Assembly: GCA_014905635.1 (NCBI GenBank)
Contig: CM026547.1
Coordinates: 3,720,001 to 3,784,000 of the forward strand
Direction: 5' to 3'
Origin: Scenedesmus sp. PABB004
Taxonomy: Eukaryota
Length of the DNA: 64,000 nucleotides
Positions 18,407 to 61,301 of the stretch are shown piece after piece. The notes under the pieces were generated by a model. It made no database searches. It was not told the DNA's origin and was given only the letters and a program-made list of their open reading frames with translations. Every line of letters begins with the position of its first letter. Position 1 is the stretch's first letter. The position numbers and the translations under genes are program-made.

Positions 18407-18473
<67 letters not shown>

Positions 18474-20145: not shown

Positions 20146-20182
<37 letters not shown>

Positions 20183-22095: not shown

Positions 22096-22132
<37 letters not shown>

Positions 22133-23820
22133 TGGGCATGGCGGTGTTGACCGTGCCGATCACCTGGAGGCCCGGCGCGGCGGCGAGGACCTGCCCGCGG
22201 CTGGGGATGTGCAGCAGCCCGCTCTCCAGCAGCGGCAGCAGCGCCGCGAGCACGTCGGGCGGCGCCGCGTCGACGCCCTCGACGACGACCCAGCGCCCCT
22301 CGGCGACCGCGCGCGCGAGCGGGCCCGCCTGCCACACAAACTCGCCGGGCACCGCGGTGCAGCTGTAGCCTCCCAGCAGCGTCTTGGCGTCGGCCTGGTC
22401 GTCGAGGTGCAGCCACAGCGCGCTCGCCGCGTTGCCCGTGGCCGCCGCGAGCGCGCGGACGAGCGTGGTCTTGCCGCACCCGGGCGGGCCCTCCACGACG
22501 ACGGGGCAGCCGCGGCACAGCGCGAGCGCCGCCGCCTCGAGCGCGGCGGCCATGCCGGGCGTGCGCACGAGGCGGCCCCACTGCAGCGCGGCGCCGGCGG
22601 CGCCGGCGTCGCCGCGCGCGCTCGCGGCCGCGCCGTCGTCCCTGGCAGGGACCTCGAGGCCGCACACGCGCACAAACCCCCTGGCCGGCGGCAGCTGCTG
22701 CTGCGGCGCGTCGTGCGGCTGCCCGCCGCCGGCGCCGCCGCAGCAGGGCGCGCCGGGCGGGCACGGCTGCCAGCGCTGCGCCAGCTGCAGCGCCACGGCG
22801 GTGCGCTCCTCCTCCCACCTGCGGCCGAGCGGCGGCGCGCGGCGGTGAGCGGCGGCTGCGAGCGGCGGCTGCGGCTCGTGCTCCCTCCCCGCAGCAGGTG
22901 TCACGCAGCGGGCCGCCGCCGCCGCACCTGAGCTGCGCGGCGACCAGCTCCTCCTCGCTCAGCTGCCGCGCCATGAGCTGCCCCTGCACCGCGTCGCTGA
23001 GCCCGAGCAGCTGCGTGATGCCCCGCACCGCCGCCCAGCGCACGAGCGCGCGGGGGTCGTTCAGCAGGCGGAACCACAGCGCGCCGCGCCAGCTCAGCCC
23101 CAGGCGCGGGTGCAGCTGCAGCGCGTGCAGCGCCGCGAGCGCCAGCAGCTCGGGGTCGGGCGGCGCCGCCGCGCCGCTGGCCACCGCCCCCTGCTGCGCC
23201 GCCGCGCCGCCCGGCTGCGCCGCCAGCAGCGACGTCAGCGGGCACTCGGCGTGCCGGAACAGCCGCGCCAGCAGTCTGCGCGCAGGGCGGGGGCGGGGTT
23301 GCTCAGCGCGCTGGCGCGCTGGCGGCGGATGCGGCGCTGCAGCCGCCGGCCCGCCGCGCGGCGGCGGCCGCCGCCGCCGCACCGCGCGACCGCGGGGTTG
23401 AACTCGAGCAGCCGCAGTGCCGCCGTCGCGGCGGCCGCGGGGTGGATGCCCGCGGCGGCACCGCGCCCGCTCTCCACGCCGTCCACGAGCAGGCCGGCCA
23501 GCGCGAGCAGCTGCCCGCGCGCCGCGGCGGCCGCCGCCAGCGTGCTGCCTGGCGCCGCCAGCAGGCGCAGCCATGCCTCCAGCAGCGCGCCGTCATCCTG
23601 CACGGCGGGGCGCGGCGGCGGGCGTGGGGCCCGGCGCGCGCCGCGGCGGCCGCCGCCGGCGCTCCGTGCGGCGGCCGCCGGCGCGGCGCGCGGCGCGCGC
23701 GGGCCGCCGGCGCGGCCGCCGCCGCACCTGTGTGTTCGACAGGGCCTCCAGCTCCGGGTGCGCCCCTCTGGCGGCCGCGTCGGCCGCCAGGCGTCGGAGC
23801 GCGGCGCCGAGGGCCGCCAT
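675..23820 (-). CDS. MDN1: Midasin (Rea1/MDN1), six-AAA ribosome biogenesis ATPase with C-terminal MIDAS; multi-exon, with several apparent frameshifts
   Basis: Six Walker A motifs: GPPGCGKT ~22480, GETGTGKT ~21125, GPTSSGKT ~18920, GETGTGKT ~17185, GSPGVGKT ~15290, GPSGAGKT ~14045. Walker B motifs LLDEINLA/LLDELNLA; PWEFNLRDLLRW; D/E-rich tail ~1800-4150; SGKRLNMRRVIGYIASQFRRDKIWMRR; MIDAS VDDSRSM; C-terminus YLDTFPFPYYIVLRDIAALPATLADLLRQWFE. Start codon inferred. Confidence 0.97.
18409..18471. repeat. (GGC)n microsatellite, about 21 units, in a midasin intron
   Basis: Uninterrupted ggc run read directly from the sequence. Confidence 0.9.
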
Positions 23821-27400: not shown

Positions 27401-28717
27401 TCACCCGCGGCAGTCCTTGCCCTGCGCGCACATCTCCCACTCGGGCGGCGGCCAGCCGAGGTTCTTGGGGTCGAAGTGGCACTGGCTGTGGTGCATCCAG
27501 AGCGGGTGCGTCGCCCGGAACTGGCGCGCGAGGTCGGTCTCCGTCTTGTGCACGACCATGGCGTTGCAGAAGCAGGGCTCAGACGTGAGCGCGCGCCAAA
27601 ACCAGGTGTTGAAGAAGGGCTGCTTGTGCTCGCCGTGCGTCGCGTACACGGGCGCGATGCCGGCGTAGCCCGCGGCGAGCGTGCCGATGGAGCTGCTGGG
27701 CGTGAGGATGATGTTGGCGCACTTGGATAGCAGCATCCAGTCCACGATCGCGCTCAGCTCCGTCCCCGGGTTGCCCGCCGCGGTCTTGCCGTCCGCCGCG
27801 AGCCCCTCCTCGGTCGCCTTGGACCACCACACCAGCCGCGGGCGCAGCGCGGCGGCCATGTCGTCAAAGAGGCGCGCGTCGACGGCGAGGAAGACCGTGC
27901 CCGGCCGCGACCCCGTGATCGCGCGCGCGATGCCCGCAAACTGCTCGACCTTGGCGCTCGTGCCGGGCTTGCGCGTGCGCATGTGCATGCCGACGGCGCA
28001 CTTCTCCGACAGGTGCGCGTACGGCGCCATCGCCTCGAGCACCACGGGCTTGGGCTTGAGCAGGTACGTCGACAGGCGGTGGAAGACGTCGCCGTCGGGG
28101 AAGAGCCGCTCAAAGTGGCGCTGCAGCGTGGGGTTGATCTGCAGCATCGGCACGTCTGCGCGCGCGGCGCAGCGCGCGGCGCGCGCGGCGCGGCATGGGC
28201 GGCGCGGGGCGGGCGGGCGGGGCGGGCGCGCAGCGCGAGCGCCGCGCCGCCGCGGCGCCGGCGTGCGCGCCGCACCGTAGTCCCAGCGGCACGTCGACAC
28301 CAGCACCGGCGCGTCGGTCGGCTGCCCTGGGCGGCCGCAGAACTTGAGCCCCGGGTCGGCGAGGCGGGTGAAGTGGGAGATGTCACACGACGGCACGCCG
28401 TCGTAGAGCGACGAGTGCTCGGTCCACTGCGTCGGCATCGGCGTCTCCATGAACTCGTGCAGCGTCGACTCGAGCAGGAACACGCGGCCCGTGAGCAGCG
28501 CGATCGCAAACGCCGCGACCACGCCCGGCACGCGGTTGCCGAGGCCGTGGCCCTGCCCCGTCTGGCACCGCATCGTGCGCGCGCCCTTGGTCTTGGCGGC
28601 GAGCACCGAGAGCTGCCACGCGCGGTGCGTCGCCAGCAGCATGTCCAGGTCGATCTGGGCGTCCAGGTCGTACGGCATGCCGTCCGCCGGGCCGCCGGCG
28701 GACGGCGGCGGCGGGGG

Positions 28718-28749
<32 letters not shown>

Positions 28750-28918
28750 TCACCGCCGTCGCCGCCGCTGCTGCTGCCCCGCCGTCCGGCGGCGCCTGCA
28801 GCAGCGCTCTGACGCCGCCGTCCAGCGCCTGCTGCAGCGCATGATGGTGTGCCTCATGTGGGCTGCCCGGGACGCCGCGCAAGGCCAGCGCCAGGAGCAG
28901 CAGGCGCGCTCCGCGCAT
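27401..28918 (-). CDS. Fucosyltransferase, GT37 (xyloglucan FUT)-like; one intron ~28156-28275
   Basis: N-terminal signal/anchor and Pro-rich stem, then GHGLGNRVPGVVAAFAIALLTGRVFLL, AVGMHMRT and AIVDWMLLSKCANIILTPSSSIGTLAAGYAG. Confidence 0.8.
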
Positions 28919-32943: not shown

Positions 32944-35900
32944 ATGCCGGGCTGCGGACGGCGGCGGCGCGCCGGCGCGCCGTCGGCTGCGGCGGCGCTG
33001 CTCAGCGTCGTCGCGCTGCTCGCGCGCGCCGTCGCGGCCGGGGCGGTGGCGGCGGAGGACGTGCACGTCGTGTTCCTGACCGACTGCACCTCCTACTCCG
33101 ACTGGCAGACGCTGGGCATGGTGTTCAGCTGGAAGGAGGCGGGGCAGGTGCGCGGCGGGCGGGCCCCGCGCCGGCGGCGCGGCTGCGGCCGCCGGGGGCG
33201 CCGGCGGTCACCGGGGCAGCCGCGGCGGCGGGCCCACGCGCACGCCGCCGCCGCCGCCGCGGCCGCCGCCGCGGCCGCCGCCGCGGCCGCGGCCGCAGGC
33301 GGGCCCGCTGAGCAAGGTCATGTGCTGCACGCCGGCCGAGGCGGCCGCGTACCGCGCCGACATGCTGGGCATCGTCAAGACGCACGTCGCGCCGAGCTTT
33401 GCGGTCCACCCGCGCAGCCACGACGAGTACCCGGCGTACAACAAGCCCGAGGCGGTCGTCGACTGGCTCGCGCACGTCACGCCGGCGCAGGAGTGGCTGC
33501 TCGTGCTCGACAGCGACATGCTGCTCCGCCGCCCCTTCCTGCTGTCCGACTTCAACCTCACGCGCGGCTCCGCCGTCGGCGCCAAGTACGACTATATGAT
33601 CGGCGTGAACAACGCGCTCGCGGACCGCCACATCCCCGAGATCCCGCCCCGCAACGACAGCGCGGCGGGGCCGCCCGGGCGGCGCAGCGACCGCGTCGGC
33701 GGCTTCTTCTTCATACACCGCGACGACCTCAAAGCGCTCGCGCCGCTCTGGCTCAAGTACACGGAGGACGTGCGCGCCGACCCCGAGGTGCGTGCGCGGG
33801 CGGGCGGCCGCGCGCGGGGGTGCTCGGCGGCGCCCGCTGCCGCCGCGCCACACACCGCGCCGCACGCCGCGCCGCACCGCGCCGCACAACACGTGTTCAC
33901 GGCAGGCGTGGCGGCTCACGGGCGACGTGTACAGCAAGCACCCGGGGGACAAGCCCTGGATCAGTGAGATGTACGGCTACAGCTTTGGCGCCGCAAAGGC
34001 GGGCGTGTGGCACACGTACGACGAGGAGTCGATGCTCTACCCAGGGTACCTCCCAAACGGTGCCTTTGTTCAACACACGCGCGCCGCGCCGCGCTGTGGC
34101 GCGCCGCAGGGGGGCCCGCGCACCGCACCGCGCCGCGCCGCGCCGCCCACGCGCCGCCGCTGGGCGCGCCGCCCCCGGCGCGCGCGCCCCGCCCCGCCAG
34201 GCGTGCCGCGCGTACTGCACTACGGGCTGCTGTTCAGCGTGGAGCACAAGCGCGGGCGCTGGTCGTACGACAAGCACTGGTACCACTCCTTTGACGTCCA
34301 CAAGTGCCCGCCCTGGGACCTGGCGGCGGAGCACCCGCAGGAGGGACTCTTCCCAGCGCCGCCGGGGCCAGACGACCTGCTCGACAACGTGCGCCCCCGC
34401 GCGCCGGGCGCCGCGCGCGCTGCGCCGCGACAAGCCCGAAACAAGCGCCGCACACAGCAGCTGCCGCACGCGCGGCGCCCTCGCGCGCGCGCGCGCCGCC
34501 CGAGCCGCCGCGCCCGCCCGTCCGCCCGCGTCCCGCCCGCGTCCCGCCGCCAGCTGACGCGGGCGGAGCGGCACCGCGACCTCATCGCCATCAGCGTCGT
34601 GCACACGCTCAACGCCGCGCTGTGTGAGTTTCACCTCGCGCACTGCCCGCCGAGCGAGCAGCTCAGGGCCGCGTGCGACGCGGCGGCGGCCGTGTACGCG
34701 GCGACCAAGGCCGCGGTGCGCGCGATGGACGTGGAGATGTCGTGCGTGGACCAGCTGGTGCGCCGCGCCGTGCCGCGCCGCGCGGGCTGCAGCCGCGCCG
34801 CGCGGGGCCCGCCCGCCGCCGGGCCGGCGCGGTGGCCGGCGTGCCCTGCTGCGCGCTGGACGCGCGCCGCCGCCGCCGCGCCGCCGCGCAGCCGGACAAG
34901 TGCAAGACGTGGGCGGACGCGGGCGAGTGCACCAAGAATGCGGGCTTCATGCATGCCTCGTGCCGCAAGTCATGCAATGCCTGCAAGCCCCTCGTCTTTC
35001 CGCCGCCCCGCGTGCTGCTGGCCGACGCCGACCTGGCCGCCACGGGGCACATGGCCGCGCACGTCACCGGCGGCGCGGCGGCGGCCGGCGCCGTGGCTGG
35101 CGGCGGCGGCGCGGTGGACGCGGCGGACGCCGAGGACGGCGCGGACGACGCCGCCGAGGCGCCGAGCCCGCCGCCCCCACCGCCGCCGAGCCCCCCGCCG
35201 CCGCCGAGCCCACCGCCCCCGCCGCCGCCGAGCCCGCCGCCGCCCCCGAGCCCGCCGCCGCCGCCGCCGCCGCCCCCGAGCTGGGAGAGCCTGCTGCGCG
35301 CGAAGCACCCGCCGGCGAGCATGGCCTACAGAGACCTCATACACCGGTGAGCGCGCCGCGCAGCCGCGCAGCGCGGGCCGCAGGCCCGGGCGGCGCCGCG
35401 CTGGCAGCAGCGCGCGCCGGCGCGCCGCGCGGGCGGGCCAGCGCGCCGCCCGCGCGCTGGCTGGCGGCGGCCCGCCGACCGCCCGCGCACCGACCGTTCG
35501 CGGCGCGGCGGCGCAGGTGCTACAAGATGGCCGGCCTGACGATGCCGGAGGTCAAGGACTGCGTCAAGTGCGCCGCGCTGGGACTGCAGTTCCTTGAACC
35601 CCACCCCGGCGCGGCCGCCGGCGCGGGGACGCTCGCGGAGCAGCTGGCGCGCGACCTCGCGGCCATGGTGCGCCGGCCGGGGCGGCGCGCGCGGCAGCGT
35701 GGTGGCGCGGCGCCAGGCCGCACGGCGCAGGCGCGGCACCGACGCCCGCCCCCGCGCCCGACGGCGACGCCCGCCCCCGCGCCGCAGGACGTGTCGCCGC
35801 CCCCGCCGCCGTCGCCGCCGCCGCCCCCGCCGCCGCCGCCGCCCGCGCCCGCGGGCGAGGAGGGCGCTGCGGCGCTGGGGCGCGCGGGCGGCGCGCGGCT

Positions 35901-36069
35901 GCGGGGCGCCAAGGTGCACCTGCGCCTCGGCGACGCGCGCCCCGGCGCGCCGCGCGTGAGCACGGCCGGCGCACTGATCCTGTGGCTCATCCTGGTGGCG
36001 CTGTTCTTGCTTCTGCTGCCGCTGATCTTCCGGCGGCGGCGCGCCAAGTCGGGGCAGCGCAGCGACTGA
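32944..36069 (+). CDS. Peptidyl-serine O-alpha-galactosyltransferase (SGT1/SERGT1, GT96)-like; also has an ShKT domain, SP-rich stalk and C-terminal TM
   Basis: Signal peptide; HVVFLTDCTSYSDWQTLGM; HPRSHDEYPAYNKPEAVVDWL; LVLDSDMLLR; WISEMYGYSFGAA; LHYGL; ShKT-type CVDQLPDKCKTWADAGECTKNAGFMHASCRKSCNAC; TM ALILWLILVALFLLLLPLIF followed by RRRR. Confidence 0.85.
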
Positions 36070-36573
36070 CGCGCGGCCGAGGGAGGGGCGCGCGCGGGCG
36101 CGGGCGGGGTAGGCAGGGCGGGGTAGGCAGGCCGGGCGGGCGGCGGAGCCGTGTGAACTGCGAGCGAGCCCTGCGGCGCGGTCAGGCGGCGGCTGGCGGC
36201 GAGGACGGCCGGCCGTTTCCGTGGCAGCTCCGCCCGCTGCGATGCCCGCGCCCTGCCCCCCGTCGCCCGCCGTGCGTGCTCGTGCGCGAGCTGCACGCTC
36301 GACGCGGCGTATGAATCAGGAGGCGGGCCACGGGCCCGCACGACAGGGACGGGAGATGACCAGGCGGCCGCGTGCCAAAATCGCGCCCTGCCCAGGCGCG
36401 GCAGCCTCGCTCGCTCACCCGATCTCCTCGTCTGCATCGCCGGTGCCATGACGCGCACTGAGTAGCCTTCGATAGCGCCACCGCCGAAGAGCTCGTGCCG
36501 ACACGCGCTCCGACACCTCCGCTCGCAGCCGACGCCACCGTCCCGGGCCCGTCGAGCTCCCGTCCGACACGGC

Positions 36574-38070
36574 ATGACTGTCCAGATGCAGCGCCGCTGG
36601 CGGCGCGCCGCGCAGGTCACTGCGCTGGCGCTGCTCTCCGCGCTGGCGGCAACCGTGGGCGCCGCCGGCGGCGAGCCCGAGGCCGACCGCGTGGACGTGT
36701 GGGTGCAGCTCATCATCAAGGCGCCCGACGGAGGCCTTTGCACGCGCGGCGCAGCGACGCAGGCCAGCGCGGCAGCGGCGCTGCGCGGCGCGCTCGCGGC
36801 CGACGCAGCGGCCACGCTCGCGGGTGCGGTCACCGCGGGCTGCACCTGGCGCTCCGCGCGCAAGGTCGTGCTGCTCACGGTCAAGCTGACCTACTACGGC
36901 CCACTGGCGGTGCGGGCCCGCTTCATGCGTGCCGTGCGCGCCAGCGCCACCGCGGTGTGCGGCCTGCCCGGCGGCGTGTGCGACGTCGTCAGTTCTGGCG
37001 CTGCAGGCGCCAGCGTGGTGGGCGCGAACGCGTCTTCCAAGCCCCCCGGTGGGTGGGCGCGCGCACGGCCGGCTGCACTGCCTGGCTGCCCGCCGCGGCG
37101 CGCCTGGCGCGCCGCGCCGCGCCGCTGACCCTGGCCCACGGTGCGCGCCCGTAGCCGCGTCGCGCAACTGCACGGGCCCACCACCGACGCCGCCCTATGC
37201 CAAACCGTTTTTGTTCTGCACCGGCATCCAGCTGCCCGGCACCTCGTGCTTCTCAGAGTGCCTTGCCGGGCACCCCAATTATCCAGGCATGTCATACTTC
37301 ATCACCGCAGCCTGTGCCACCAACGGGGAGTGGGAGCTGCAGACTGGCCCCGAGCACCCCAGCTGCAGCGCGGCAGGTGCGAGGCGCACCGGCGCGGCGC
37401 GGCGCAGCGGGGGCGGGCCGCGCGGCGAGCGCGCCGCCGCCACGCGCTCGCGCGCGCCCCGCAGCCATGGCAAACTGCACCGACGCGCCTGAGCTGGCGT
37501 ACGCCGACTTGTCTACGTTCTACGTCCTGGACGGCGAGATCGGCGTCCCCTGCAACGGCAGCCGCGTGCCCGGGACGACCTGTAGCGCGTGGTGCGCGGA
37601 GGGTCACCTCGGCAACGGCTACATCGTCGAGTGCTACAACGGCAGCTGGAGGGTGATGGACCATGGCAACGGCACCGCGCTTCCGTCTGGCTGCAGCGCA
37701 GATGGTGGGCGCGCTTCAGCAACGTCCCGCGCCGCGCCGTGCCGCGTGTGAGCGCAAGCGTGGCCTGTTCCGCGCCGCCGCGGCTCCTGCCCAGCCGCGC
37801 GCCCGCGCGCCGCGCGCCTGCCCGCCCGCAGTGCACCCCAACTGCGTCGGCCGGCCGCCGGCGCCGACCGTGCCTGGCGCGTACTGGCCGAAAACCTGCA
37901 CCAACCTCCCCGTCAACGCGGTCTGCTTTGGCTCCTGCAGCGACGGCTACACCGGCTTTGGCTTGCAGGCGCGCTGCGTCGCGGGCGGGCAGTGGGTCAT
38001 GACCACAGACTTCTCAGACATGCCCGACTACGGCTGCACACGTGCGCCGCGTGGGCAGCCGGGTAAGTAG
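36574..38070 (+). CDS. Secreted Cys-rich protein, array copy 1: N-domain plus 3 sushi/CCP-like modules; truncated or short form
   Basis: Signal QVTALALLSALAATVGA; three phase-1 exons with a C..PGT.C...C..G...C..G.W...C pattern. Similarity to copy 2 ends ~38040. Confidence 0.7.
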
Positions 38071-38207
38071 TCTGAATGACTGGTTCACGGCTGCAGGGCG
38101 GGCGGGGTGCAGGCACGTTCGCGGACGCGCGCCCTCGGCAACAAAGCCGGCCGTGCCCAAGTTCACACCGTCGTGATCGGGGACGTCTACCACGCCTACA
38201 AGGCGCT

Positions 38208-38780
38208 GCAGTTCCTGCTGCTGCCGCTGATCTTCCGGCGGCGGCGCGCCAAGTCGGGGCAGCGCAGCGACTGACGCGCGGCCGAGGGAGGGGCGCGCGC
38301 GGGCGCGGGCGGGGTAGGCAGGGCGGGGTAGGCAGGCCGGGCGGGCGGCGGAGCCGTGTGAACTGCGAGCGAGCCCTGCGGCGCGGTCAGGCGGCGGCTG
38401 GCGGCGAGGACGGCCGGCCGTTTCCGTGGCAGCTCCGCCCGCTGCGATGCCCGCGCCCTGCCCCCCGTCGCCCGCCGTGCGTGCTCGTGCGCGAGCTGCA
38501 CGCTCGACGCGGCGTATGAATCAGGAGGCGGGCCACGGGCCCGCACGACAGGGACGGGAGATGACCAGGCGGCCGCGTGCCAAAATCGCGCCCTGCCCAG
38601 GCGCGGCAGCCTCGCTCGCTCACCCGATCTCCTCGTCTGCATCGCCGGTGCCATGACGCGCACTGAGTGGCCTTCGATAGCGCCACCGCCGAAGAGCTCG
38701 TGCCGACACGCGCTCCGACACCTCCGCTCGCAGCCGACGCCACCGTCCCGGGCCCGTCGAGCTCCCGTCCGACACGGCAT
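38208..38780 (+). repeat. Near-identical duplicate of the SGT1 3' end plus the intergenic region (copy of ~36005-36575)
   Basis: ctgccgctgatcttccggcggcggcgcgccaagtcggggcagcgcagcgactga and the following ~500 bp recur at a 2205-bp offset. Confidence 0.92.
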
Positions 38781-41700
38781 GACTGTCCAGATGCAGCGCC
38801 GCTGGCGGCGCGCCGCGCAGGTCACTGCGCTGGCGCTGCTCTCCGCGCTGGCGGCAACCGTGGGCGCCGCCGCCGGCGGCGAGCCCGTGGCTGAGCCCGT
38901 GGCGCTGTGGGTGCAGCTCACCATCAAGGCGCCCGACGGCGGCCTTTGCACGCGCGGCGCAGCGACGCAGGCCAGCGCGGCGGCGGCACTGCGCGACGCG
39001 CTCGCGGCCGACGCGGCGGCCACGCGCGCGGATGCGGTCACCGCGGGCTGCACCTGGCGCTCCGCGCGCAAGGTCGTGCTGCTCACGGTCAAGCTGACCT
39101 ACTACGGCCCACTGGCGGTGCGGGCCCGCTTCATGCGTGCCGTGCGCGCCAGCGCCACCGCGGTGTGCGGCCTGCCCGGCGGCGTGTGCGACGTCGTCAG
39201 TTCTGGCGCTGCAGGCGCCAGCGTGGTGGGCGCGACCGCGTCTCCCAAGCCCTTCACGCCCGTCGGTGGGCGCGCGCGCGGCCGGCTGCGCTGCCTGGCA
39301 CGCCGCCGCGCCGGGCGCGCCGCTGCTGCGCTCCGCTTACCCTGGCCCACCGTGCGCGCCCGCAGCCGCGCCGCGCAACTGCACGGGCCCGCCGCCGGTG
39401 ACGCCACCTTATGCTGGCGCGTTCATTGGCTGCAATGGCACCCGGCTGCCGGGCACCTTGTGCTACGCACCCTGCCTTCCCGGGCACCCCGCGCCGCCTG
39501 GCATGCCAGACTCCGCCTCCGCGCTCTGCGCCACCAGCGGGGAGTGGGAGCTGCAGACTGGCCCCGACCACCCCAGCTGCAGCGCGGCAGGTGCGCGGGG
39601 CACCGGCGCGGCGCGGCGCAGCGGGGGCGGGCCGCGCGGCGAGCGCGCCGCCGCCACGCGCTCGCGCGCGCCCCGCAGCCATGGCAAACTGCACCGACGC
39701 GCCTGAGCTGGCGCACGCCGGCTTGTTCCACACCGTGGCCGGCATGGGCGTCCCCTGCAACGGCACCCGCGCGCCCGGGACGATCTGCGCCGCGGAGTGC
39801 GCGGAGGGGCACCTCGGCAACGGCTACAACGCCAAGTGCTAGGCGGCAGTTGGGCTGTGATCGACTTGAGCAACCGCACCTGGGGGGCGCTTCCGTTTGG
39901 CTGCAGCGCAGAGGGTGGGCGCCCTTCAGCAGCGCCGCGCCGCGCCGCGCCGCGCCGCGCCGCCGCGGCGCCCGCCCAGCCGCGCGCCCGCGCGCCGCGC
40001 GCCTGCCCGCCCGCAGTGCACCCCAACTGCGTCGGCCGGCCGCCAGCGCCGACCGTGCCCGGCGCGTACTGGCCGAGCACCGCCTGCGCCAACACCCCCG
40101 TCAACGCGGTCTGCTACAGCTCCTGCAGCGACGGCTACACCGGCTTTGGTGTGCAGGCGCGCTGCGTCGCGGGCGGGCAGTGGGTCATGATCACAGACCT
40201 CTCAAACGCCCCCAACTACGGCTGCACGGGTGAGCCGCGCCCCCCTTTCCCCTCCCTCCTCTCCTCCTCCCCCGCGCGGCGTGCGCCGCCGCTGGCGCCG
40301 GCGCCCAGCGACGCCCGCGCGCGCCGCGGCCGCAGCCTCCGGCCCGCCCGGCTCCTGCTCGGACCTGCCGACGGCTGGAGCGCCGGGCGCCTACGCCAAC
40401 GCCTGGCCGGTCAGCTGTGCCGGCGCGGCGATCGGCGCCACCTGCAGCACCACGTGCGCGCCAGGCTTTGTTGGGGGCTACACCGCGACCTGCGGCGCCA
40501 GCGGGAAGTGGGTCGGCGTGTCGGGCAGCTGCAGCAGCGGTGCGCGCTCCGGCCTCACGCGGCGGCTGCGGCGGCGCGTGGCTGCGGTGCGCGGCGACAG
40601 GCATGAGAGGCGGCTCACCGCCGCCGCCCCGCCCGGCGCCGCAGAGCCGCTGAGGCTCAACTGCACCAGCGTCCCCACCGACAGCGCCGCGATGCGCGCC
40701 GCGGGCGTCTCCTTTGCTTCGGCGGGCTGCGCCGGCAGCCCCGCCGGCTTTGTGTGCACCGTGCCATGCACAGGCCCCGGCCAGTCTGGCAGCTGGACCT
40801 CAGCCTGCCTCCCGACCGGGAAGTGGGGCGCCGCGCAGGGCAGCTGCACCCAGGGTGAGAGCGGCGTGTCTGTGCGCCGCGGCGCGGCGCCGCCCGACCG
40901 CGCGCGGCTCACCCCGCTCGGCCGCCTGCCCTGCGCGCCTCAGCGGGGCCGATCTATCGAGTGATGGTGTACGACGCCCGCTCGATGGACCAGGGCGGCG
41001 GGTACAAGCTCTGGCGGAGCACGGCCGGCGTCACCGGCACGTTTGCCGAGACCGCGCCCCCGGCGGTGGGCGGCGGCGATGTCCGCTGGGCGGGCAGCAG
41101 CAACCTGCAGACGCAGGTCGTCGCGCGGGCCACCCAACCACACTACGGCATCGTCGACAATATAGGGTCGTCGCTGCCCCTGCTCTCCGCCGACGGCGGC
41201 TCCGTGTGGCTCAACACGACCGGTCCCACCTTGCCTGTGGATGCCACCTTTGTAGCGCTCGCGTCGTCGCGGGGTGAGCGGCGCGCGTGCAGGCCGGCTC
41301 ACGGCGGCACGCGCTGTGCGGGGCGGGTGTGGGGCGAGGGCACGCCATGTGCGCCGCTCACGCCGCGACGCCCGGGCGCAGACGGCTCCCGCGTCGTGGG
41401 CGTGACAGCACCGGTGTTGCGGAACGGCGTCGTGGTGCAAGCCGGGGCCGTGACGGCGCTGAGCCCCAGCGCCGGCGCGTGGGTGGACATCACCCCCTGG
41501 CTGGCCCCCGTCAGGTGGCGCTCCGTCGCCTGCGACGCCGCGTGCGACACGATCTACCTCGCTCCCTCCAGCTCCACCCCGGACGGCACCGCCCTGGTCG
41601 ACCAGCTCTACAGGTCCTCCGACGGCGGACGCACGTTTGCCAAGTTTGGCGACGCCAAGCTCTGGGCATACGTCGCCTCCAACCACGACGGTGGGCTGCC

Positions 41701-42327
41701 AGTTGGGCGCGCTGTGCACGCGCAGCTGCCGCTCGCTTTGGCGCGCGCGCCGCTCACGCGCGCGCCGCTCACGCGCGCGCCGCGGCGGCGCCGCTCGCCG
41801 CGCCTGCAGGCACGCGGCTGCTGGCGTCCACCAGCGAGCCTGCCACGTACGTCTCCAGCGACAGCGGCGCCACGTGGACCAAGGTCAGTAGCCTTGCCAC
41901 GTGGAGCAGCTTTGGCGACTGCGCCATCGCGGCGCTGGCCATCGACGGCACGGGCTCGCACATGCTGGCCAGCACCGTGTGGTGCACGGGCGGGTCTGGT
42001 CGCTGCCCGGTGTGGTCGTCGCGCGACGGCGGCGCCAGCTGGGAGGTGCGCTACAACCTGAGCTGCTCGGCCCCGGGCATCCACCACATGGCCATCAGCG
42101 GGAGCGGGGAGGTGCAGCTGTTTGCCATGGGCAGCACGTTTTACTACTCGGAGGACTACGGCGCGACGTGGCAGTCGCGCTGGGTTGGGCCCGACATCAA
42201 CAACGCTCTCGCGCTCCGCATCAGCGACGTGTGCGACGCCTGCGCCAACGGCAGCTGCGACGCCGGCGGGTGCTGGTGCAACGCCGGCTACGCTTGGAGC
42301 GGCAGCTCGTGCCGCCAGGCGGCCTAG
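38779..42327 (+). CDS. Secreted protein, array copy 2: N-domain, 5 sushi-like modules, Asp-box (BNR) propeller-like region, EGF-like end; one frameshift at ~39840
   Basis: Paralog of copy 1 at a 2205-bp offset. Asp-boxes YRSSDGGRTF, YVSSDSGATW, WSSRDGGASW and YYSEDYGATW; C-terminus CDACANGSCDAGGCWCNAGYAWSGSSC. Confidence 0.75.
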
Positions 42328-42494
42328 CCCCGGCACGGCGGCCGGGCTGCGATCAGCGGAGCGCTCCGTCACGGGTGGAGCGCCGCGGCAGAGCCGTGTC
42401 GACCCCTGCGCGGTGACCAGGGGCTGGCCGGGCTTCAAGGGGCGGCACTACCAGAGCAGCTGCTTGGTGCTGGCGAGCCGCCACCCGCGCCTGC

Positions 42495-42795
42495 GCGGGC
42501 GAGGCGGGCGCGGCGGCGCTGGGGCGCGCGGGCGGCGCGCGGCTGCGCTGCGCCAAGGTGCACCTGCGCCTCGGCGACGCGCGCCCCGGCGCGCCGCGCG
42601 TGAGCACGGCCGGCGCACTGATCCTATGGCTCATCCTGGTGGCCCTGTTCTTCCGGCGGCGGCTGCCGCTGATCTTCCGGCGGCGGCGGCGCGCCAAGTC
42701 CGGGCAGAGCGGCGACTCGCGAGCGGCCGAGGGAGGGGCGCGCGGGAGAGGCGCGCGGGTGAGCGGGCGGGGTAGGCAGGCCGGGCGGGCGGCGG
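42495..42795 (+). pseudogene. Duplicated, degenerate SGT1 last-exon fragment
   Basis: Encodes KVHLRLGDARPGAPRVSTAGALILWLILVALF...RAKSGQSGD, matching ~35850-36150; the stop is mutated. Confidence 0.85.
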
Positions 42796-43243
42796 AGCGA
42801 ACGGCGCCTGACGCGTGCGGCAGCCCTGGCAGCAAGGCTGCTGCCGCCCCGGGCCCGGTTCGGCGGCTGCGGCGCGCGTGTTCTGGCTGGCCGCCGCGCC
42901 AAACGCGAACGCTCTTTGCTGCTGCGATCGCCTGCATGTTTGCGTGCGCACGCATGTGGACAGACCCTGGCAGCGTATGAACGAGCGGGCTGGCCCGCCT
43001 GGCGCAAAACAGGCCGCACGATGACCCGCGCGCAAAATCGGGGCGCGCGCGCTGCTGCGCGCCTAACCCCTCGCTGGCGCCCGCCCGTTGCTCGCCCGCA
43101 ACACCAGTGACACGGAGGGCGCCGACAGCCCCGCCGTCCACGCTCGCACAGCGGACAGAAGCCCCAGCTTCGGTCTGAGCCACCGCCCCGACCTGGCGAG
43201 CGCTTCCACGACCGATCGAGCTCGCCCCCCGACACCCGACAGC

Positions 43244-45406
43244 ATGCCCGTCCACGTGAAGCGCCGCTCGCGGCGCGCCGCGCAGGTCACCGCGCTGGCG
43301 CTGCTCTCCGCGCTGGCGGCAACCGTGGGCGCCGCCGGCGGCAAGCCCGAGGCCGACCCCGTGGCGCTGTGGGTGCAGCTCATCATCAAGGCGCCCGACG
43401 GCGGCCTTTGCTCGGGCGCAGAGACGCAGTACAACGCAGCGGCGGCACTGGGCCAGGCGCTCACGTCCGACCCGATGCTGCAGCCGCGCGTGGAGTTTTA
43501 CGCCACGGACTGCCGCTTGGATTCCGCGCGCAAGGCCGTGCTGCTGACGGTCAAGCTGACCTACCCCGGCCCACTGGCGGTGCGGGCCCGCTTCATGCGT
43601 GCCGTGCGCGCCAGCGCCACCGCGGTGTGCGGCCTGCCCGGCGGCGTGTGCGACGTCATCAGTTCTGGCGTCCAGGGCGCCAGCGTGGTGGGTGCGACCG
43701 CGTCTTCCAAACCCCTCGGTGGGCCGGCGCGTGCACGGCCGGCTGCGCTGCCTGGCACGCCGCCGCGCCGGGCGCACGGCGGCGCGCCGCTGACTCTGGC
43801 CCACCGTGCGCGCCCGCCGACAGGACCGATCCCCTGCACCAGCGCGCCTACCGACAGCGCCGCGATGCGCGCCGCGGGCGTCTCCTTTGCTTCGGCGGGC
43901 TGCGCCGACAGCTGCCCCGGCTTCAAGTGCATCGTGCCATGCACAGGCCCCGGCCAGTCTGGCAGCTGGACCTCGGCCTGCCTCCCGACCGGGAAGTGGG
44001 GCGCTGCGCAGGGCGGCTGCACCCAGAGTGAGAGCGGCGGCGTGCCCGCGCGCCGCGCCGCGGCACCGCCCGACCGCGCGCGGCTCACCTCGCTCGGCCG
44101 CCTGCCCTGCGCGCCTCAGCGGGGCCGGTCAGCCCTCCAGGGCTGTCCTACACGGTCCTGGTGTATGACGCCCGCGCAATGTACCAGGGCGGCGGGTACA
44201 AGCTCTGGCGGAGCACGGCCGGCGTCACCGGCACATTTGCCGAGGTCAAAACGCCGCCGCCGGTGGGCGACGCCAGCATTCGATGGGCGGCCAGCAGCAA
44301 CCTGCAGACGCAGGTCGTCGCGGACACCAACAGCGGCGCGCTGCCCCTGCTCTCCACCGACGGCGGCTCCACGTGGCGCAGGACGACTGGGGTCGACCTG
44401 TCTACCTCCTTCGTTGACACGCTTGCGTCCTCGCGGGGTGAGCCCGCCTTTGCCAGCCCGCTGGCGCGGCGGCCGGCGCGCGGCGCCAGTGGGGCCTGGG
44501 CAGCGCAAGACGCACCACCATGTGCGCCGCGCGCCGCCGCCTGCCTGCCTCGCTCCCAACAACGCTCGGCGACGCGCACGCAGACGGCTCCCGCGCTGTG
44601 GCCGAGGTGATTAATGAGAAAACGATCGGAGACGTGTGGGTGCTGACCACAAGCACCGGCGTGTGGGTGCGGAGGAACCCCCGGCTGGGCGCCTACAAGT
44701 GGTGCTCCGTCGCCTGCGACGCGTCGTGCAACGTGATTTACACCGCCCCCTGCAGCCTCCGGCAACGCTTCGCGCTGGTCAGGTCATCTGACGGCGGAAA
44801 CACCTGGGCCAGCGTCGGCCCAACCATGTTCTGGGAGAGAGTCGTCTCCAACAACGACGGTGACCCTCGGCTGAGCCGAGCGCGCGCCCACCAGCACGCG
44901 CCCAGTCGGGCGTGGTGCAGCTGTCGCTCGCTTTGGCGCGCGCCGCTGACGCGCGTGCCGCGGCGGCGCCGCCCGGCGCGCCTGCAGGCACGCGGCTGCT
45001 GGCGGCCGCCCGCGAGGCCACGTACGTCTCCAGCGACAGCGGCGCCACGTGGGCCAATGTCAGCCGCCTTGCCACGTGGAGCAGCTATGGCGACTGCACC
45101 ATCGCGGCGCTGGCCATCGACGGCACGGGCTCGCACATGCTGGCCAGCACCGTGTGGTGCACGGGCGGGTCTGGTCGCTGCCCGGTGTGGTCGTCGCGCG
45201 ACGGCGGCGCCAGCTGGGAGGTGCGCTACAACCTGAGCTGCTCGGCCCCGGGCATCCACCACATGGCCATCAGCGGGAGCGGGGAGGTGCAGCTGTTTGC
45301 CATGGGCAGCACGTTTTACTACTCGGAGGACTACGGCGCGACGTGGCAGTCGCGCTGGGTTGGGCCCGACATCAACAACGCCGTCTCGCTCCTCATCAGC
45401 GGCTGA
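43244..45406 (+). CDS. Secreted protein, array copy 3: N-domain, 1 sushi-like module, Asp-box region; EGF-like end lost
   Basis: MPVHVKRRSRRAAQVTALALLSAL start; same intron positions as copy 2; last exon nearly identical to copy 2 until DINNA, then stops at LISG*. Confidence 0.75.
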
Positions 45407-45614
45407 CGGCAGCTGCGACGTCGGGGGGCGCTCGCGCTCGTGCCGCCAGCGCACACGGCGGCACGGGCTGCGATCAGCGGAGCGCTCCGTCACGGGTGGA
45501 GCGCCGCGGCAGAGCCGTGTCGACCGCTGCGCGGTGACCAGCGGTCAGGCTTTGAGGGGCGGCAATACCAGAGCAGCTGCTTGGTGCTGGCGAGCCGCCG
45601 CCCACGCCCTCGCT

Positions 45615-45870
45615 CGAGGCGGGCGCGGCGGCGCTGGGGCGCACGGGCGCGGCTGCGGGGCGCCAAGGTGCACCTGCCGCTGCTGCTGCCGCTGCTGCTG
45701 CCGCTGCTGCCGCTGATCTTCCGGCGGCGGCGGCGCGCCAAGTCGGGGCAGAGCGGCGACTCGCGAGCGGCCGAGGGAGGGGCGCGCGCGGGCGCGCGGG
45801 TGCGCGGGCGGGGGCTAAGCAGGCCGGGCGGGCGGCGGAGCCGTGTGACCTGCGAGCGAGCGGCGCCTGA
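45615..45870 (+). pseudogene. Internally deleted SGT1 last-exon fragment
   Basis: Encodes RLRGAKVHL joined directly to PLLLP...PLIFRRRRRAKSGQSGD, followed by SGT1 3' UTR-like sequence. Confidence 0.8.
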
Positions 45871-46198: not shown

Positions 46199-48376
46199 AT
46201 GCCGTCCGCCAGCAAGCTCGAGAAGAAGGAGGCGGTGCGCGGCCGCGCCGGGGCCCGCCGCTCGCGCGGGCGGCCGATCTCGCGCCCCTGACGCCCCTCG
46301 GCCGCGTGCGCAGTACCACGCCCGCCTCTGCGAGTACCTGAACACCTACGACAAGGCGTTCGTGGTGGGGGCCGACAATGTGGGCTCCAAGCAGATGTCC
46401 GACATCCGCGCGGTGAGGGAGACCGCGGGGCGGCGCCGCGCCGCCGGCGGCGCGCCGGGCGCGGGCATGCGGCCGCCGCCGCGGCGGCGGCTGGCGCTGC
46501 TGCTGCTGCGCCGCCGGCGGCGGCCGGGGGCCGGCGGCAAGGCGGCCAGGCGGCCGGGGCCGGCGGCAGGCGGCCGGGGCGAGGCCCCGGCGGCCGGCAG
46601 CGGCGCCCCGGCGGCGGCGAGGCGGCGGCTCACGCGCGCGCGCCGCCCGCCAGGCGCTGCGCCCCGAGACCATCATCCTGATGGGCAAGAACACCATGAT
46701 GAAGCGCTCCATCCGCCTCTACTGCGAGGAGACGGGCAACGACCAGTGGGCCCCGATCCTGGACGAGCTCGTCGGCAACGTCGGCCTCATCTTCACCAAG
46801 GGCGACCTCGCGCAGGTGCGCTGCGCGTCGTGGCAGCAGCGCGACGCGCAGCGCGACGCAGCAGCTGGCGCGGGGCGCGGCGGGCGAGCGCGGCAGCAGC
46901 TGGGGCTGGACGCGCCGCGAGCGGCGGCGCGGGCAGCGGCGCGCGGCGAGGGGCGGCTGGCGGAAGACGCGGCAGCGCCAGCGGCGCCAGCGCCAGCGGC
47001 GGCGGGAGCAGCGCCAGCGCCAGCGCCAGCGGCGGCAGCGCCAGCGCCAGCGGCGGCAGCGCCAGCGCCAGCGCCAGCGCTAGCGCCAGCGGCCCCTGTA
47101 ATGGCAGAACCGCGCGGCGGCGCGGTGCCGCCGCGGTTTTGACAGGGGCCAGAGCGGCGGTGCCGATCTCCGGGGACGGGAAGCGAAACGCATATGCACC
47201 AGATCTTCGAATATCGGCACCAACATGCTGCACCCGCCGCGGCGCCCCCGCCACGCCACCCCACGCTCGCGGCGGCGCCGCGGCGCGGCGCGCGCCCTCG
47301 CCCCGGCCCACACCACGCGCCCGCCTCACGCGCCCGCCGGCCCTGCCGCGCAGGTCAAGGCCGAGATCGCCAAGTACAAGGTCGGCGCGCCCGCGCGCGT
47401 GGGCCTGGTCGCGCCCAACGACGTCACCATCCCCGCCGGCGGCACGGGCATGGACCCGTCCCAGACCTCGTTCTTCCAGGCGCGCACGCGGCGCAGCGCG
47501 CACGCGCGCACACACGCGCCGCCGCCGGGCTGGCGCGCCGTCGCGCCCGCGCCCCGGCCCGCCGCGCCCGTGCCCGCGCCCGCCGCCCGTGCGCCCGCGT
47601 CGCCCACCCCGCCCCCTCCCGCTCCCCCGCGCGCCCGCCGTCGCCCGCCAGGCGCTCGCGATCGCGACCAAGATTAACAAGGGCACGATCGACATCGTGA
47701 GCGACGTGCACCTCATCAAGGCGGGCGACAAGGTCGGCGCGAGCGAGGCGGCGCTGCTCGGCAAGCTCGGCGTCAAGCCGTTCAAGTACGGCCTCGAGAT
47801 CGTGCGCGTCTACGACAGCGGCTCGCTCTTTGAGCCCGCCGTGCTCGACATCACCGACGCCGACATGGAGGCGACCGTCGGCGCGGCGCTGTCCAACATC
47901 GCGGCGCTCTCGCTCGCGATCGACGTGCCCACGCTCGCGAGCATCCCGCACAGCGTCATCAACGGCTACAAGAATGTCCTCGCGATCGCGGTCGAGACCG
48001 ACTACTCCTTCCCGCTCGCCGACAAGGCGCGCGCCGGCGGCACGCGCGCGCGGCGGCGGCGGCAGCAGCGGGGTGGCGGCAGCAGCGGCGGCGGGGGCTG
48101 CAGCGGCGGCGGCGCAGCGGCGGCGGGGGCTGCAGCGGCGGCGGCGCAGCGGCGGCGGGGGCTGCAGCGGCGGCGGCGCAGCGGCGCCCGCGCGCCGTGC
48201 CGCCCATGCGCGCCGCGCCGCCCCCGCGCCCGCAGGTCAAGGCGTACCTCGCCGACCCGAGCGCCTTTGCCGTGGCCGCCGCGCCCGCGGCGGGCTCCGC
48301 GGCGCCCGCCGCCGCGGCGGCGCCGGAGCCCGAGGAGGAGGAGGAGGAGGACATGGGCTTCTCCCTCTTTGACTGA
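46199..48376 (+). CDS. RPLP0: 60S acidic ribosomal protein P0 (uL10); 6 exons
   Basis: [60 protein letters not shown], and C-terminal [14 protein letters not shown]. Confidence 0.98.
47091..47228 (+). ncRNA. Intronic box H/ACA snoRNA candidate (pseudouridylation guide for 18S rRNA)
   Basis: Two hairpins (47091-47150 and 47159-47221), hinge AGAGCG, ACA at 47223-47225; both pockets are complementary to conserved 18S sequences. Confidence 0.85.
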
Positions 48377-50218: not shown

Positions 50219-50620
50219 TCACTCGTAGTAGAGGCCAAACACCTGGCAGACGCAGTAGAGGGAGTCGTTCTCGTAGTACTCGCTCACGAAGCTGTCGGTG
50301 GCGGTGTCCCAGAGGCAGCGCGACACGATGCGCATCGCCTGGCCCTTCTTCTGGCCGAGCGTGACCTGCACGACCAGCTTGTAGCGCTCGTAGCCCAGCG
50401 CCTTGACCTTCTCCCGCAGGTCCTCCGCTAGGTGCTTGGTCGTCTGCGCGGCCTTGACGGGGTCGTACTGCTGCTTGTCCATGCGCTCCTTGAGCACCGC
50501 CTTGAGCACCGCCTGCACGCGGTGCCGCGCAAACTTGGCGCCCTCGCCGTAGCCCGCCGGGCCGGTGATGTAGGTGTTCTCGTACACCACCTCCCGCGGC
50601 GGCGCGCCGCCGGCGTCCAT
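50219..50620 (-). CDS. Tctex-family dynein light chain, resembling outer-arm LC2; intronless
   Basis: VVYENTYITGP...KALGYERYKLVVQVTLGQKKGQAMRIVSRCLWD...CVCQVFGLYYE*. Confidence 0.92.
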   Translation of the reverse strand: MDAGGAPPREVVYENTYITGPAGYGEGAKFARHRVQAVLKAVLKERMDKQQYDPVKAAQTTKHLAEDLREKVKALGYERYKLVVQVTLGQKKGQAMRIVSRCLWDTATDSFVSEYYENDSLYCVCQVFGLYYE

Positions 50621-51096
50621 GGCGGCGCCGCTTGCCGGCGCGGCGGTGCTGCTCGCGCGGCGGGGGGCTCGCTGCGCGCTGGTGGGGCCGGCCTGCGCGG
50701 TGCCCCGTGTTGAGATGAGCGCGATGTGACTCCCCGGCAGGCGCGGGCGGCGCCTAGGGGCCGGGAGAGCGAGGTGTCGGCGAGGTTTGACCGCGTGACA
50801 TCCCGCCCAGCTCCTGACCTTCCCACAAGCTCTGGCGGCGCAGAGCGGCCCGTCAGAGTCTCCACCGTGCTCGCGTGCTGCTCTGGGGCCGCACCAAGCG
50901 CTCGGTCGATCCGCAGGCCTGGCACCGCGCCGCACCGGCCGCCGCTGCTCGTGGGTGCGCGCACGCGGCGCCGCGCCTGCGGCAGCGCCTCGCGTCTGGT
51001 CCGCTCCCAGCCGCACCAGCCTCCCAGCCGCGGCGCGGCCCAGCCGGCGCGCGCCGGCCGCGCGCACACGCGCACCAGCAGCGGCGGCCGCCCGCC

Positions 51097-51820
51097 ATGG
51101 CGGCGGAGGCGGCGGCGCCGCTGGACATGGAGACCTTCTTCCGCCAGGTGCGGCCAGGCGCCCGCCGGCCGCCGCGGCGCGCGGTCGCCCGGGCCCACCG
51201 TCCCCGGCGGCGCCGTGGTCCAGGCGAAGTACCCGCTGGTCAAGTTCACAGACATGGCCGCCGAGATGCGGGAGGAGGCGCTCGACATCTGCATCGCCGC
51301 GGTGGAGAAGCACCCCGCCGACATGGAGAAGTGCACGCAGGCGCGCGCGCTGGCCATGGCTGCATGGCCCGCCGACCCGCGCGGCCGAGCTCGGCCGCCC
51401 TCGCCGCGCGCTGCGAGCGCTGCGGGCGCACGCGTGCGCGTACGCGCGGCTCCGGCCGCAGCAGCGCGGCGGCCAGACGCCAACGCCGCGCATGCCGTGC
51501 GCCCCGCCGCGCGCCAGATGATCAAGGACCAGCTCGACCGCAAGTTTGGCGCGCCGTGGCACGTCATCGTGGGCAAGGGCTTCGCGTACGAGGTCACACA
51601 CGAGGCGCGCCGACAGCACAGCACAGCACAGCGCGCCCGCCGCCGCCGGGGCGGGCAGCAGGGCCCGCCGCGCGCGGGCGCTCGCGCGCAGGCGGCCGGC
51701 TGATCAGCGCGCCTGAGCGCGCCGGCCCGCCCCGTCGCGCCCCCGCGCCGCCTGCAGCTCCGCACCATTCTCTGCCTCTACGTCGGCGGCACGACGGCCG
51801 TGCTGATCTGGAAGATGTGA
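51097..51820 (+). CDS. DNAL4: Axonemal dynein light chain LC10/DNAL4 (LC8 family); 4 exons
   Basis: YPLVKFTDMAAEMREEALDICIAAVEKH, MIKDQLDRKFGAPWHVIVGKGFAYEVTHE and LYVGGTTAVLIWKM*. Confidence 0.9.
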
Positions 51821-60453: not shown

Positions 60454-60488
<35 letters not shown>

Positions 60489-61032: not shown

Positions 61033-61301
61033 GGCCGGTGGGGGTGTCACCGGGGCTTTGCTTTGGAGGTGTTTTTCGTGCGTGCCGCCACGCGTGTGCC
61101 GACGGCGCTCGATGACAAAGACGCGACCCAAGACCGCCGCCGCGGGGGTCTGCTGCCGCGCGCGCGCTCGCGCCGCCGCGCCTGCAGCCCGCCACGACCC
61201 GCAGCCAGATCCTGAGCGGCCGCTGGGGGAGGCGCTCTGCCTCCGCGCCGCGCAGCGGCAGAGCAGCGCCACGCAGCAGCGGCAGCAGCGCCGCGGCCGC
61301 G

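Follow-up and report, generated by a model that had tools for sequence, protein, structure and literature searches.

Exon-shuffled class 1-1 modular proteins are described in one section of a review as practically restricted to animals (PMC8001218, section 2.3.1). In the parts of that review, by Patthy, that deal with animal mosaics, domain borders lie at phase-1 introns and the reused modules are extracellular, mainly-beta, and disulfide-rich, features that appear to recur at the locus reported here. Among algae, the ROCO-LRR and NB-ARC-TPR genes of Ectocarpus form exon-shuffled families in which each repeat has its own exon, genes are born and lost at a high rate, and immune roles have been proposed, according to part of the study concerned (PMC3341825), and part of another describes expansions of SRCR and C-type lectin genes in Chlamydomonas relatives, that is, animal-type extracellular recognition domains in algae (PMC8226300). 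One table row of PMC12638912 annotates a sushi-domain gene, down-regulated by salt, in a related alga, and a passage of PMC7409359 proposes an adhesive role for an oomycete sushi protein. Here, we describe a tandem array of three paralogous genes in the green alga Scenedesmus sp. PABB004, at positions 36574 to 45406 of a stretch of 64,000 nucleotides (nt) (assembly GCA_014905635.1, contig CM026547.1, positions 3,720,001 to 3,784,000 of the forward strand), which is called the window below. The array is predicted to encode secreted proteins with a SEA-like N-domain, a stalk of sushi modules, and, in two of the three copies, an Asp-box propeller head. Searches of the literature (mostly papers available without subscription, and no supplements) on sushi, SEA, and Asp-box domains in algae and giant viruses returned no description of this architecture, and the pairing of sushi modules with an Asp-box propeller was not returned by homolog and literature searches. 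Every domain type of the array is known.

Three paralogs in phase-1 exons

The window, from contig CM026547.1 (C1) of a 40-Mb assembly of 80 contigs, has a G+C content of 78 to 80%, and its introns are short and of the GT-AG type. The three paralogs, which were spliced by coordinates, are co-oriented on the forward strand and start at 36574, 38779, and 43244. Each begins with an exon 1 of 475 to 487 nt for a signal peptide and the N-domain (36574 to 37048, 38779 to 39265, and 43244 to 43718). In copy 1, this exon is followed by three module exons, the first two being phase 1-1 exons (37155 to 37376 and 37465 to 37704, the latter intact) and the third beginning at 37832 and reading past the end of its module at 38041 to a stop at 38068-38070; copy 1 has no propeller. 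Copy 2 has five modules (39366 to 39590, 39679 to 39914, 40017 to 40229, 40336 to 40539, and 40645 to 40854), three propeller exons, P1 (40944 to 41273), P2 (41382 to 41690), and P3 (41810 to 42327), and a six-cysteine tail before the stop that ends P3. Copy 3 has a single module (43824 to 44027) and the propeller exons P1 (44120 to 44437), P2 (44584 to 44859), and P3 with the stop (44988 to 45406), and encodes 563 amino acids without an internal stop.

All 15 introns of the array are GT-AG introns of 88 to 146 nt in phase 1, those inside the propeller as well as those flanking the modules, and the length of every intact internal exon is divisible by three. An earlier note on this DNA, made from the letters alone, had described three tandem paralogs with a common signal peptide and N-domain and with three, five, and one modules, each in its own exon between phase-1 introns, and the gene models agree. 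Each product has a single hydrophobic peak, at residues 15 to 33, and none elsewhere, so the products look secreted and without a membrane anchor. A TATGAA hexamer (36310, 38515, and 42976) and a few short motifs lie at a similar distance upstream of all three start codons and are kept although the flank of copy 3 is only about 60% identical; they are possible promoter elements.

Three of the eight module exons in the window match Pfam Sushi (PF00084), each just under the cutoff. A second profile was built from 52 modules, 5 of the window and 47 of other loci, all chosen by their six-cysteine pattern; 20 of the 52 match PF00084 at an E value of ≤0.05. This profile matches 47 PDB sequences at an E value of ≤0.01, and 46 of these we take, by name, to bear CCP modules. 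Six cysteines and a tryptophan are invariant in all 52 modules, the rows having been preselected by the six-cysteine pattern. Module 4 of copy 2 was modeled with a predicted local distance difference test (pLDDT) score of 90.4 and adopts a CCP fold; its best structural match has a Z score of 6.5, a modest value from a small domain, with a root mean square deviation (rmsd) of 2.4 over 58 aligned residues, and 47 of the 50 best structural rows presumably bear CCP modules, judging from their titles. The Foldseek rows agree with CCP, none of them at an E value of ≤0.001. Profile and model together indicate that the modules of the window are sushi modules with an extra cysteine pair, which bears out the sushi-like label of the earlier note. 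The module of copy 3 has a seventh cysteine, probably unpaired, which could allow covalent dimers.

Asp-box matches occur only in copies 2 and 3, with five propeller boxes each, and the earlier note had rightly found none in copy 1. The 327 to 348 residues after the stalk can be divided by eye into seven repeats of 41 to 52 residues with five clear and two degenerate Asp-boxes, and the last strand would close blade 1. The two internal introns of the head interrupt blades 3 and 5 at the same turn, to within one codon, which gives the exons two, two, and three repeats; P3 also holds the closing strand. When the P1, P2, and P3 products of copy 3 were folded as three chains, they assembled with a score of 0.86 against 0.14 for the best control. 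Of 78 solved complexes, 51 reach the mark set for this score, as do 2 of 108 mismatched pairs; passing it may reflect likeness to solved propellers. The contacts agreed by at least 96% between runs, the pLDDT of the partners was 81 to 83, and, among the closest contacts, the last strand of P2 pairs with the first of P3. The fold check that the earlier note had suggested gave a CCP fold for the modeled module and, for the head, exon products that assemble.

The C-terminal region is, by repeat analysis and model, predicted to be a seven-bladed Asp-box propeller and not a sialidase or VPS10 domain; the propeller proposed in the earlier note stood, and its sialidase/VPS10-type label proved too narrow. 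GH33 sialidases are defined by a RIP motif and six blades; neither spliced protein has a RIP motif, and seven repeats were counted. Pfam Sortilin-Vps10 scores above the cutoff for P3, through the repeats, and neither the ten-blade layout nor a second hydrophobic peak of VPS10/sortilin proteins was found. The fetched part of the sortilin-like locus of the genome (L055) gave no BLAST match to the head, in a comparison whose sensitivity is lowered by the introns there. The nearest solved sequence is YCF48 (E value of 0.002 over 54 amino acids), and orthology to YCF48/HCF136 is not supported, as the fetched part of a separate gene on C76 that we take from its motifs to be HCF136-like gives no match at an E value of <0.1, again with introns that lower sensitivity.

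The propeller was found twice among the candidates scored in the genome. For its relatives, 81 bacterial and metagenome loci, 25 viral loci, and 42 proteins were compared. The best relatives are repetitive actinobacterial proteins (32 to 33% identity over 267 to 310 residues), with giant-virus proteins close behind. Of the Asp-box frames, 58 of 84 from bacteria and 12 of 26 from viruses have a blade turn of the type W-x-x-V-A-S-S-x-D-G, which none of the 42 other proteins has; the sample is biased, because the bacterial and viral loci had been fetched with the head as the query. An origin of the propeller from giant viruses was considered and dropped: after the 81 bacterial and metagenome loci were added, bacteria came first and the viruses interleaved. 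The repeat register among these relatives is ambiguous at 25 to 35% identity. A horizontal origin of the propeller is plausible from these comparisons. No algal relative was found among 112 metagenome candidates, of which two were confirmed, both of bacterial type, and neither a phage record nor a PHROG match (0 of 6) was found.

The N-domain was modeled for copy 3 from a single sequence (pLDDT 61.9), and its fold in copy 1 is assigned by homology to copy 3. DSSP gives the model a beta-alpha-beta-beta-alpha-beta order, which is ferredoxin-like. Structurally, it comes closest to the SEA-bearing region of GPR126 (Z score of 9.9, rmsd of 3.3, 103 aligned residues), and four of the nine top structural rows are SEA domains (GPR126, MUC16, TMPRSS6, and another protease SEA). 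We call it SEA-like, by modeled fold and extracellular position. The N-domain has no Pfam SEA match and no substantial Pfam, NCBIfam, or PHROG family, and Foldseek returned nothing at an E value of ≤0.001. Outside the genome, homologs were absent among 8,000 scored candidates and, at an E value of ≤0.001, among 1.84 billion representatives, with no usable Atlas match; these libraries are mostly prokaryotic, so the negative result shows neither novelty nor absence. The beta2-beta3 loop of the model (residues 62 to 65) ends in Arg-Lys, and MUC1, Notch-2, and GPR126 are cut in this loop of their SEA domains, according to part of PMC6954182. By this analogy, cleavage of the modeled N-domain at the loop may be taken as a lead, and as no more than that.

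The tail of copy 2 (about 42223 to 42315) has six cysteines and a C-x-C-x-x-G-Y end, occurs only in this copy, and has no exon of its own, lying inside the P3 exon. It has no Pfam match and no EGF match in the PDB. The end that the earlier note had assigned to copy 2 is EGF-like by its cysteine pattern. Alignment of the two 3' ends at the DNA level reveals a remnant of the tail directly behind the stop of copy 3 (45407 to 45450), which indicates that the tail was lost in copy 3.

The same modules elsewhere in the genome

A genome search, also suggested by the earlier note, found the sushi modules in other genes with other architectures. Of 26 sushi candidates, 23 match PF00084 at an E value of ≤0.1, 17 of them above the cutoff. 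A profile made from the window modules alone finds at least 85 modules, in 17 of the 18 10-kb stretches examined. Among 67 modules defined by pattern, 14 continue into the next module without an intron. At module borders outside the array, phase 1 was found for 27 of the 30 donors and 21 of the 26 acceptors that were called, where about one-third would be expected at random; each side had 53 free ends, of which 23 donors and 27 acceptors were left uncalled. The baseline for comparison consists of three checked introns of the neighboring ribosomal protein P0 gene, all in phase 0.

The deposited model P0043 (L038:4054-7333) combines a link (Xlink) domain with about ten sushi modules, and 8 of its 10 introns are in phase 1, the exceptions being one inside a module and one that belongs to a doubtful fusion. 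The model appears to be joined to an unrelated downstream gene by this doubtful last intron. A gene on C13 (L039:3392-9992 and L098:1-990) encodes a signal peptide, a SEA-like domain, and a run of about 26 sushi modules, with two or three of them sharing an exon in places, and has no anchor and no head. Its N-domain has diverged (local score of 64 to 73, reached by 0 to 4 of 1,000 shuffles). Four more N-domain homologs (one on C7, two on C8, and one on C76) share a motif in the C-terminal half; these paralogs (L060 to L063 and L095 to L097) have a Cys-rich domain, the SEA-like domain, Cys repeats, a weak match to choice-of-anchor X, and EGF-like repeats. They are large, with a middle part that looks bacterial. 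Three of the eight matches in this homolog search were not homologs on inspection. A phase-1 intron follows the SEA-like domain in the C13 gene and in one of the C8 genes. Near-identical sushi genes lie about 50 kb apart in inverted orientation on C46 (L048 and L049), and three near-identical single modules were found on C8 (L041, L042, and L053).

The sushi module thus occurs with a SEA-like domain and a propeller in the array, with a SEA-like domain only in the C13 gene, and with a link domain in P0043. To judge from the gene models, it shows the class 1-1 signs of borders at phase-1 introns and reuse across architectures. The earlier note had proposed exon shuffling for the array; phase-1 modularity and reuse across the genome speak for it, and shuffling is better evidenced by these same modules in different architectures than by the array itself. 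With over 80 sushi modules and several architectures, this one green alga shows, for the sushi module, the two diagnostic signs given in the consulted part of the review (PMC8001218), which makes it possible to test in an outgroup whether phase-1 modularization stems from secretion and not from animal multicellularity.

Origin of the array and state of its copies

The array is bordered and divided by four copies of the 3' end of the upstream gene (32944 to 36069), the original and three more, which were detected by self-BLAST and repeat families. A1 (35835 to 36170), with the hydrophobic C-terminal segment, the stop, and the 3' flank of that gene, is the left border; A2 (38202 to 38374) is a partial copy; A3 (42477 to 42798) separates copies 2 and 3; and A4 (45594 to 45861) is the right border, before the P0 gene. 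Copies 1 and 2 are 99.8% identical across 504 nt of 5' flank but 78 to 94% identical in exons, and identity in 60-nt windows between copies ranges from 55 to 100%. Between copies 2 and 3, P3 is 96% identical at the DNA level and the adjoining P1-P2 only 64 to 70%. This patchwork suggests repeated conversion or unequal exchange.

As the earlier note had it, copy 3 keeps the last module: its single module is a paralog of module 5 of copy 2 (87.6% DNA identity versus 50 to 60% to the other modules). Copy 3 retains intron 1 nearly to the acceptor and joins module 5 at the first cysteine of the module, so four modules were lost at an exon border, or gained there in copy 2; either direction fits.

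The earlier note was right on the layout of the copies and missed a frameshift in copy 2, a truncation of copy 1 at a breakpoint, and the tail loss in copy 3. The module 2 exon of copy 2 has 236 nt and is one base short near 39841-39843, which leads to a stop. As assembled, copy 2 therefore encodes no five-module protein; leaving out this exon gives an open frame of 831 amino acids. Copy 1 lacks a propeller because the duplicated segment (35997 to 38051) stops just past its module 3. The read-through product of copy 1 has 391 amino acids, and a second phase-1 donor lies at 38062. For copy 1, we also considered a membrane-anchored isoform that would borrow the hydrophobic tail duplicated from the upstream gene; two weak acceptors keep the frame but reach only part of that hydrophobic stretch, and we hold the isoform to be unlikely. 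Of the three copies, only copy 3 is plainly intact.

Directly behind the breakpoint of copy 1 lies a unique spacer of 150 nt (38052 to 38201). DNA and protein searches found neither its source nor a second copy in the genome. One of its frames is protein-like and continues without a shift into the tail copied from the upstream gene. Pieces of the locus occur in four freshwater metagenome runs from three studies, and two runs of one study, about 92 to 99% identical, yield contigs of a diverged strain that run across the breakpoint, which is therefore no artifact of assembly. One run of the diverged strain has an in-frame variant of module 2 (joint 37649-39870). The other run covers 39607 to 39913 with 305 letters and 4 gap letters, by arithmetic one inserted and three omitted, counts that are compatible with an intact module 2 allele.

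The series of three, five, and one modules is the outcome of tandem duplication, truncation, and patchy conversion plus one module deletion or gain, and not a set of three independently shuffled functional genes; in this respect, the shuffling proposed in the earlier note did not hold within the array. In the space of 10 kb, the locus shows duplication, truncation, module change, and conversion side by side.

The flanking genes are a secretory-pathway gene upstream and the ribosomal P0 gene (46199 to 48376, + strand) downstream. The upstream gene, on the + strand, has multiple exons, a ShK domain, a Pro-rich stretch, and the C-terminal hydrophobic segment, and its motifs resemble what we take, without a library match, to be those of peptidyl-serine alpha-galactosyltransferase. 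Inside a GC-repeat intron of the P0 gene, ARAGORN calls a tRNA-Gly (46992 to 47091, − strand), which is probably false. Pfam matches were obtained for 5 of the 24 long frames of the window, including a midasin-type AAA protein (11700 to 22553, −), a xyloglucan fucosyltransferase-like gene (27404 to 28918, −), Tctex-1 (50222 to 51493, −), and a Tub-family gene (59811 to 61112, +).

Function and comparison with known systems

Selection was assessed by Nei-Gojobori counts in 11 comparisons. In four module pairs, none of 59 amino acid differences hits a Cys or the core Trp (joint P of 0.0013), and where paralogous exons differ in length, they do so by a multiple of three in six of seven pairs. Between copies 2 and 3, the heads are 70% identical in amino acids in P1, 49% in P2, the most divergent exon, and 92% in P3, and all eight indels fall in BC or DA connections by our own blade assignment. 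Ligand-binding residues of Asp-box propellers lie on the BC/DA face, according to part of PMC2716378. The frame of these proteins is under constraint, their surface free or diversifying.

The reading that we favor, and hold to be somewhat probable, is that the array is a birth-and-death cluster of secreted, disulfide-rich stalk-and-head proteins with a noncatalytic propeller head that would bind glycans or microbial surfaces. A unit flanked by copies of the 3' end of the upstream gene would have been duplicated in tandem to form the array. Later, copy 1 would have been truncated, copy 2 would have acquired its frameshift, modules would have been lost or gained, copy 3 would have lost its EGF-like tail, and patches of sequence would have been exchanged. 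The protein would be exported to the wall or mucilage, where the SEA-like domain may serve as a base that anchors or oligomerizes it and is possibly cut in the beta2-beta3 loop. The sushi run would be a spacer whose length can change without breaking the frame, and the variable top face of the propeller would bind a glycan or microbial surface without catalysis. Several results weigh against this reading. In the assembly, two of the three copies carry damage. In the model of the N-domain, which is of low confidence, SEA domains tie with generic ferredoxin-like folds such as that of PheRS (Z score of 9.1). The loop contains neither cleavage motif, GSVVV (MUC1 type) or (R/K)-X-K-R (GPR126 type); the part of PMC6954182 that gives them adds that the motif is not present in all SEA domains. 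The pooled module pairs have a pN of 0.133 and a pS of 0.137, a dN/dS (nonsynonymous to synonymous ratio) of about 1 that fits relaxed constraint too, and positive selection was significant in none of the 11 comparisons, P2 and exon 1 coming closest (omega of 1.7 to 1.9, P of about 0.07, the lowest). The BC/DA face is variable in Asp-box propellers in general, as the consulted part of PMC2716378 also states, so its variability is weak evidence of ligand diversification.

A dN/dS near 1 outside the cysteine frame would also suit structural glycoproteins of the wall or mucilage, in which the sushi run serves for spacing or cross-linking, the head passively oligomerizes or binds matrix, and the variation is drift under loose constraint. 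The headless C13 gene, with its SEA-like domain and about 26 sushi modules, fits such a role, and so do the N-glycosylation sequons of the two spliced products (six and two) and the nearby fucosyltransferase-like and putative serine galactosyltransferase genes. We find this account rather unlikely: head divergence is concentrated in P1-P2 beside a 92% identical P3, with the indels on one face, and copy 1 module 3 differs from the diverged strain at at least 10 nonsynonymous and at least 2 synonymous sites among those listed, with the cysteines kept, a difference that is not significant. The same dN/dS could mark a decaying cluster, a gene no longer used whose array arose as a side effect of local duplication beside a housekeeping gene. 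The frameshift of copy 2, the truncation of copy 1, and the EGF loss of copy 3 would then be its symptoms, and no motif of the TGTAA type, the poly(A) signal of Chlamydomonas, lies behind any copy, although the upstream gene lacks it too. This is improbable in view of copy 3, which is open with all splice sites present, the retention of Cys and Trp, the frame-keeping length changes, the in-frame module 2 variant in the related strain, and a third-position GC content (GC3) of 0.79 to 0.94 in all 18 exons of the array.

The head might instead be catalytic; the protein would then be exported as a glycoside hydrolase of a new Asp-box type, tethered by its sushi stalk, and would remodel the wall or digest external polysaccharide. 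Most Asp-box propellers of known structure are carbohydrate-active, according to part of PMC2716378, and a glycosylhydrolase model, F510_1955, matches the head weakly (24 to 26 bits against a cutoff of 175). The missing RIP motif and the single seven-bladed unit, unlike the six blades of GH33 or the tandem propellers of GH74, make a hydrolase quite improbable, as do nearest relatives that are highly repetitive bacterial and viral repeats and top-face loops too poorly conserved between paralogs for an active site. A bolder extension, which we regard as doubtful though worth stating, is that this lineage independently evolved animal-style class 1-1 shuffling of sushi, SEA-like, link, and EGF-like modules and domesticated a horizontally acquired bacterial or giant-virus propeller behind a phase-1 intron, splitting it near blade borders. 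The resulting recognition family would diversify in reach, through module number and exon skipping, and in specificity, through top-face loops and conversion, under pressure from microbes or grazers. If the heads of the stalk-and-head proteins bind microbes or glycans, the array is a candidate algal surface-recognition family of the sort proposed in the earlier note; to our knowledge, immune receptors in algae are largely unknown. If the proteins are only structural, the array belongs to an unannotated wall protein family of modest interest.

Set beside known systems, the modules resemble those of the sushi/CCP proteins CR1/CR2, factor H, DAF, selectins, PAPP-A, and CSMD1 in their C-x-x-x-P start, second-half cysteines, core Trp, length of about 60 residues, CCP fold (here in a model), tandem arrays, and phase 1-1 exons. 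They differ in that canonical sushi modules have four cysteines, paired 1-3 and 2-4, and the window modules six invariant ones, and in scoring below the Pfam cutoff; selectin and PAPP-A modules also have extra cysteines, and we know of no complement system in algae. With the SEA proteins MUC1, MUC16, GPR126, and TMPRSS6, the N-domain shares an extracellular ferredoxin-like domain of about 115 residues and a beta2-beta3 loop with basic residues at its tip, whereas its identity to them is 7 to 12%, it has four conserved cysteines, and it is N-terminal in a soluble protein instead of next to the membrane. The head has the S-x-D-x-G-x-x-W boxes of the Asp-box propellers (GH33, GH74, VPS10/sortilin, and YCF48/HCF136), here spaced by 41 to 52 residues, and differs in its seven blades with C-terminal closure and in lacking a sialidase motif, the 10-bladed VPS10 layout, the 10CC domain, and an anchor; its blade turn is of the type seen in bacterial and giant-virus repeats. 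The Ectocarpus families, as described in part of PMC3341825, consist of LRR or TPR repeats of signaling proteins with diversifying selection reported, whereas the array encodes predicted secreted proteins with other modules and without significant selection. Unlike the animal class 1-1 mosaics, the array occurs in a green alga, and its SEA-like domain and EGF-like tail are not bounded by introns on both sides.

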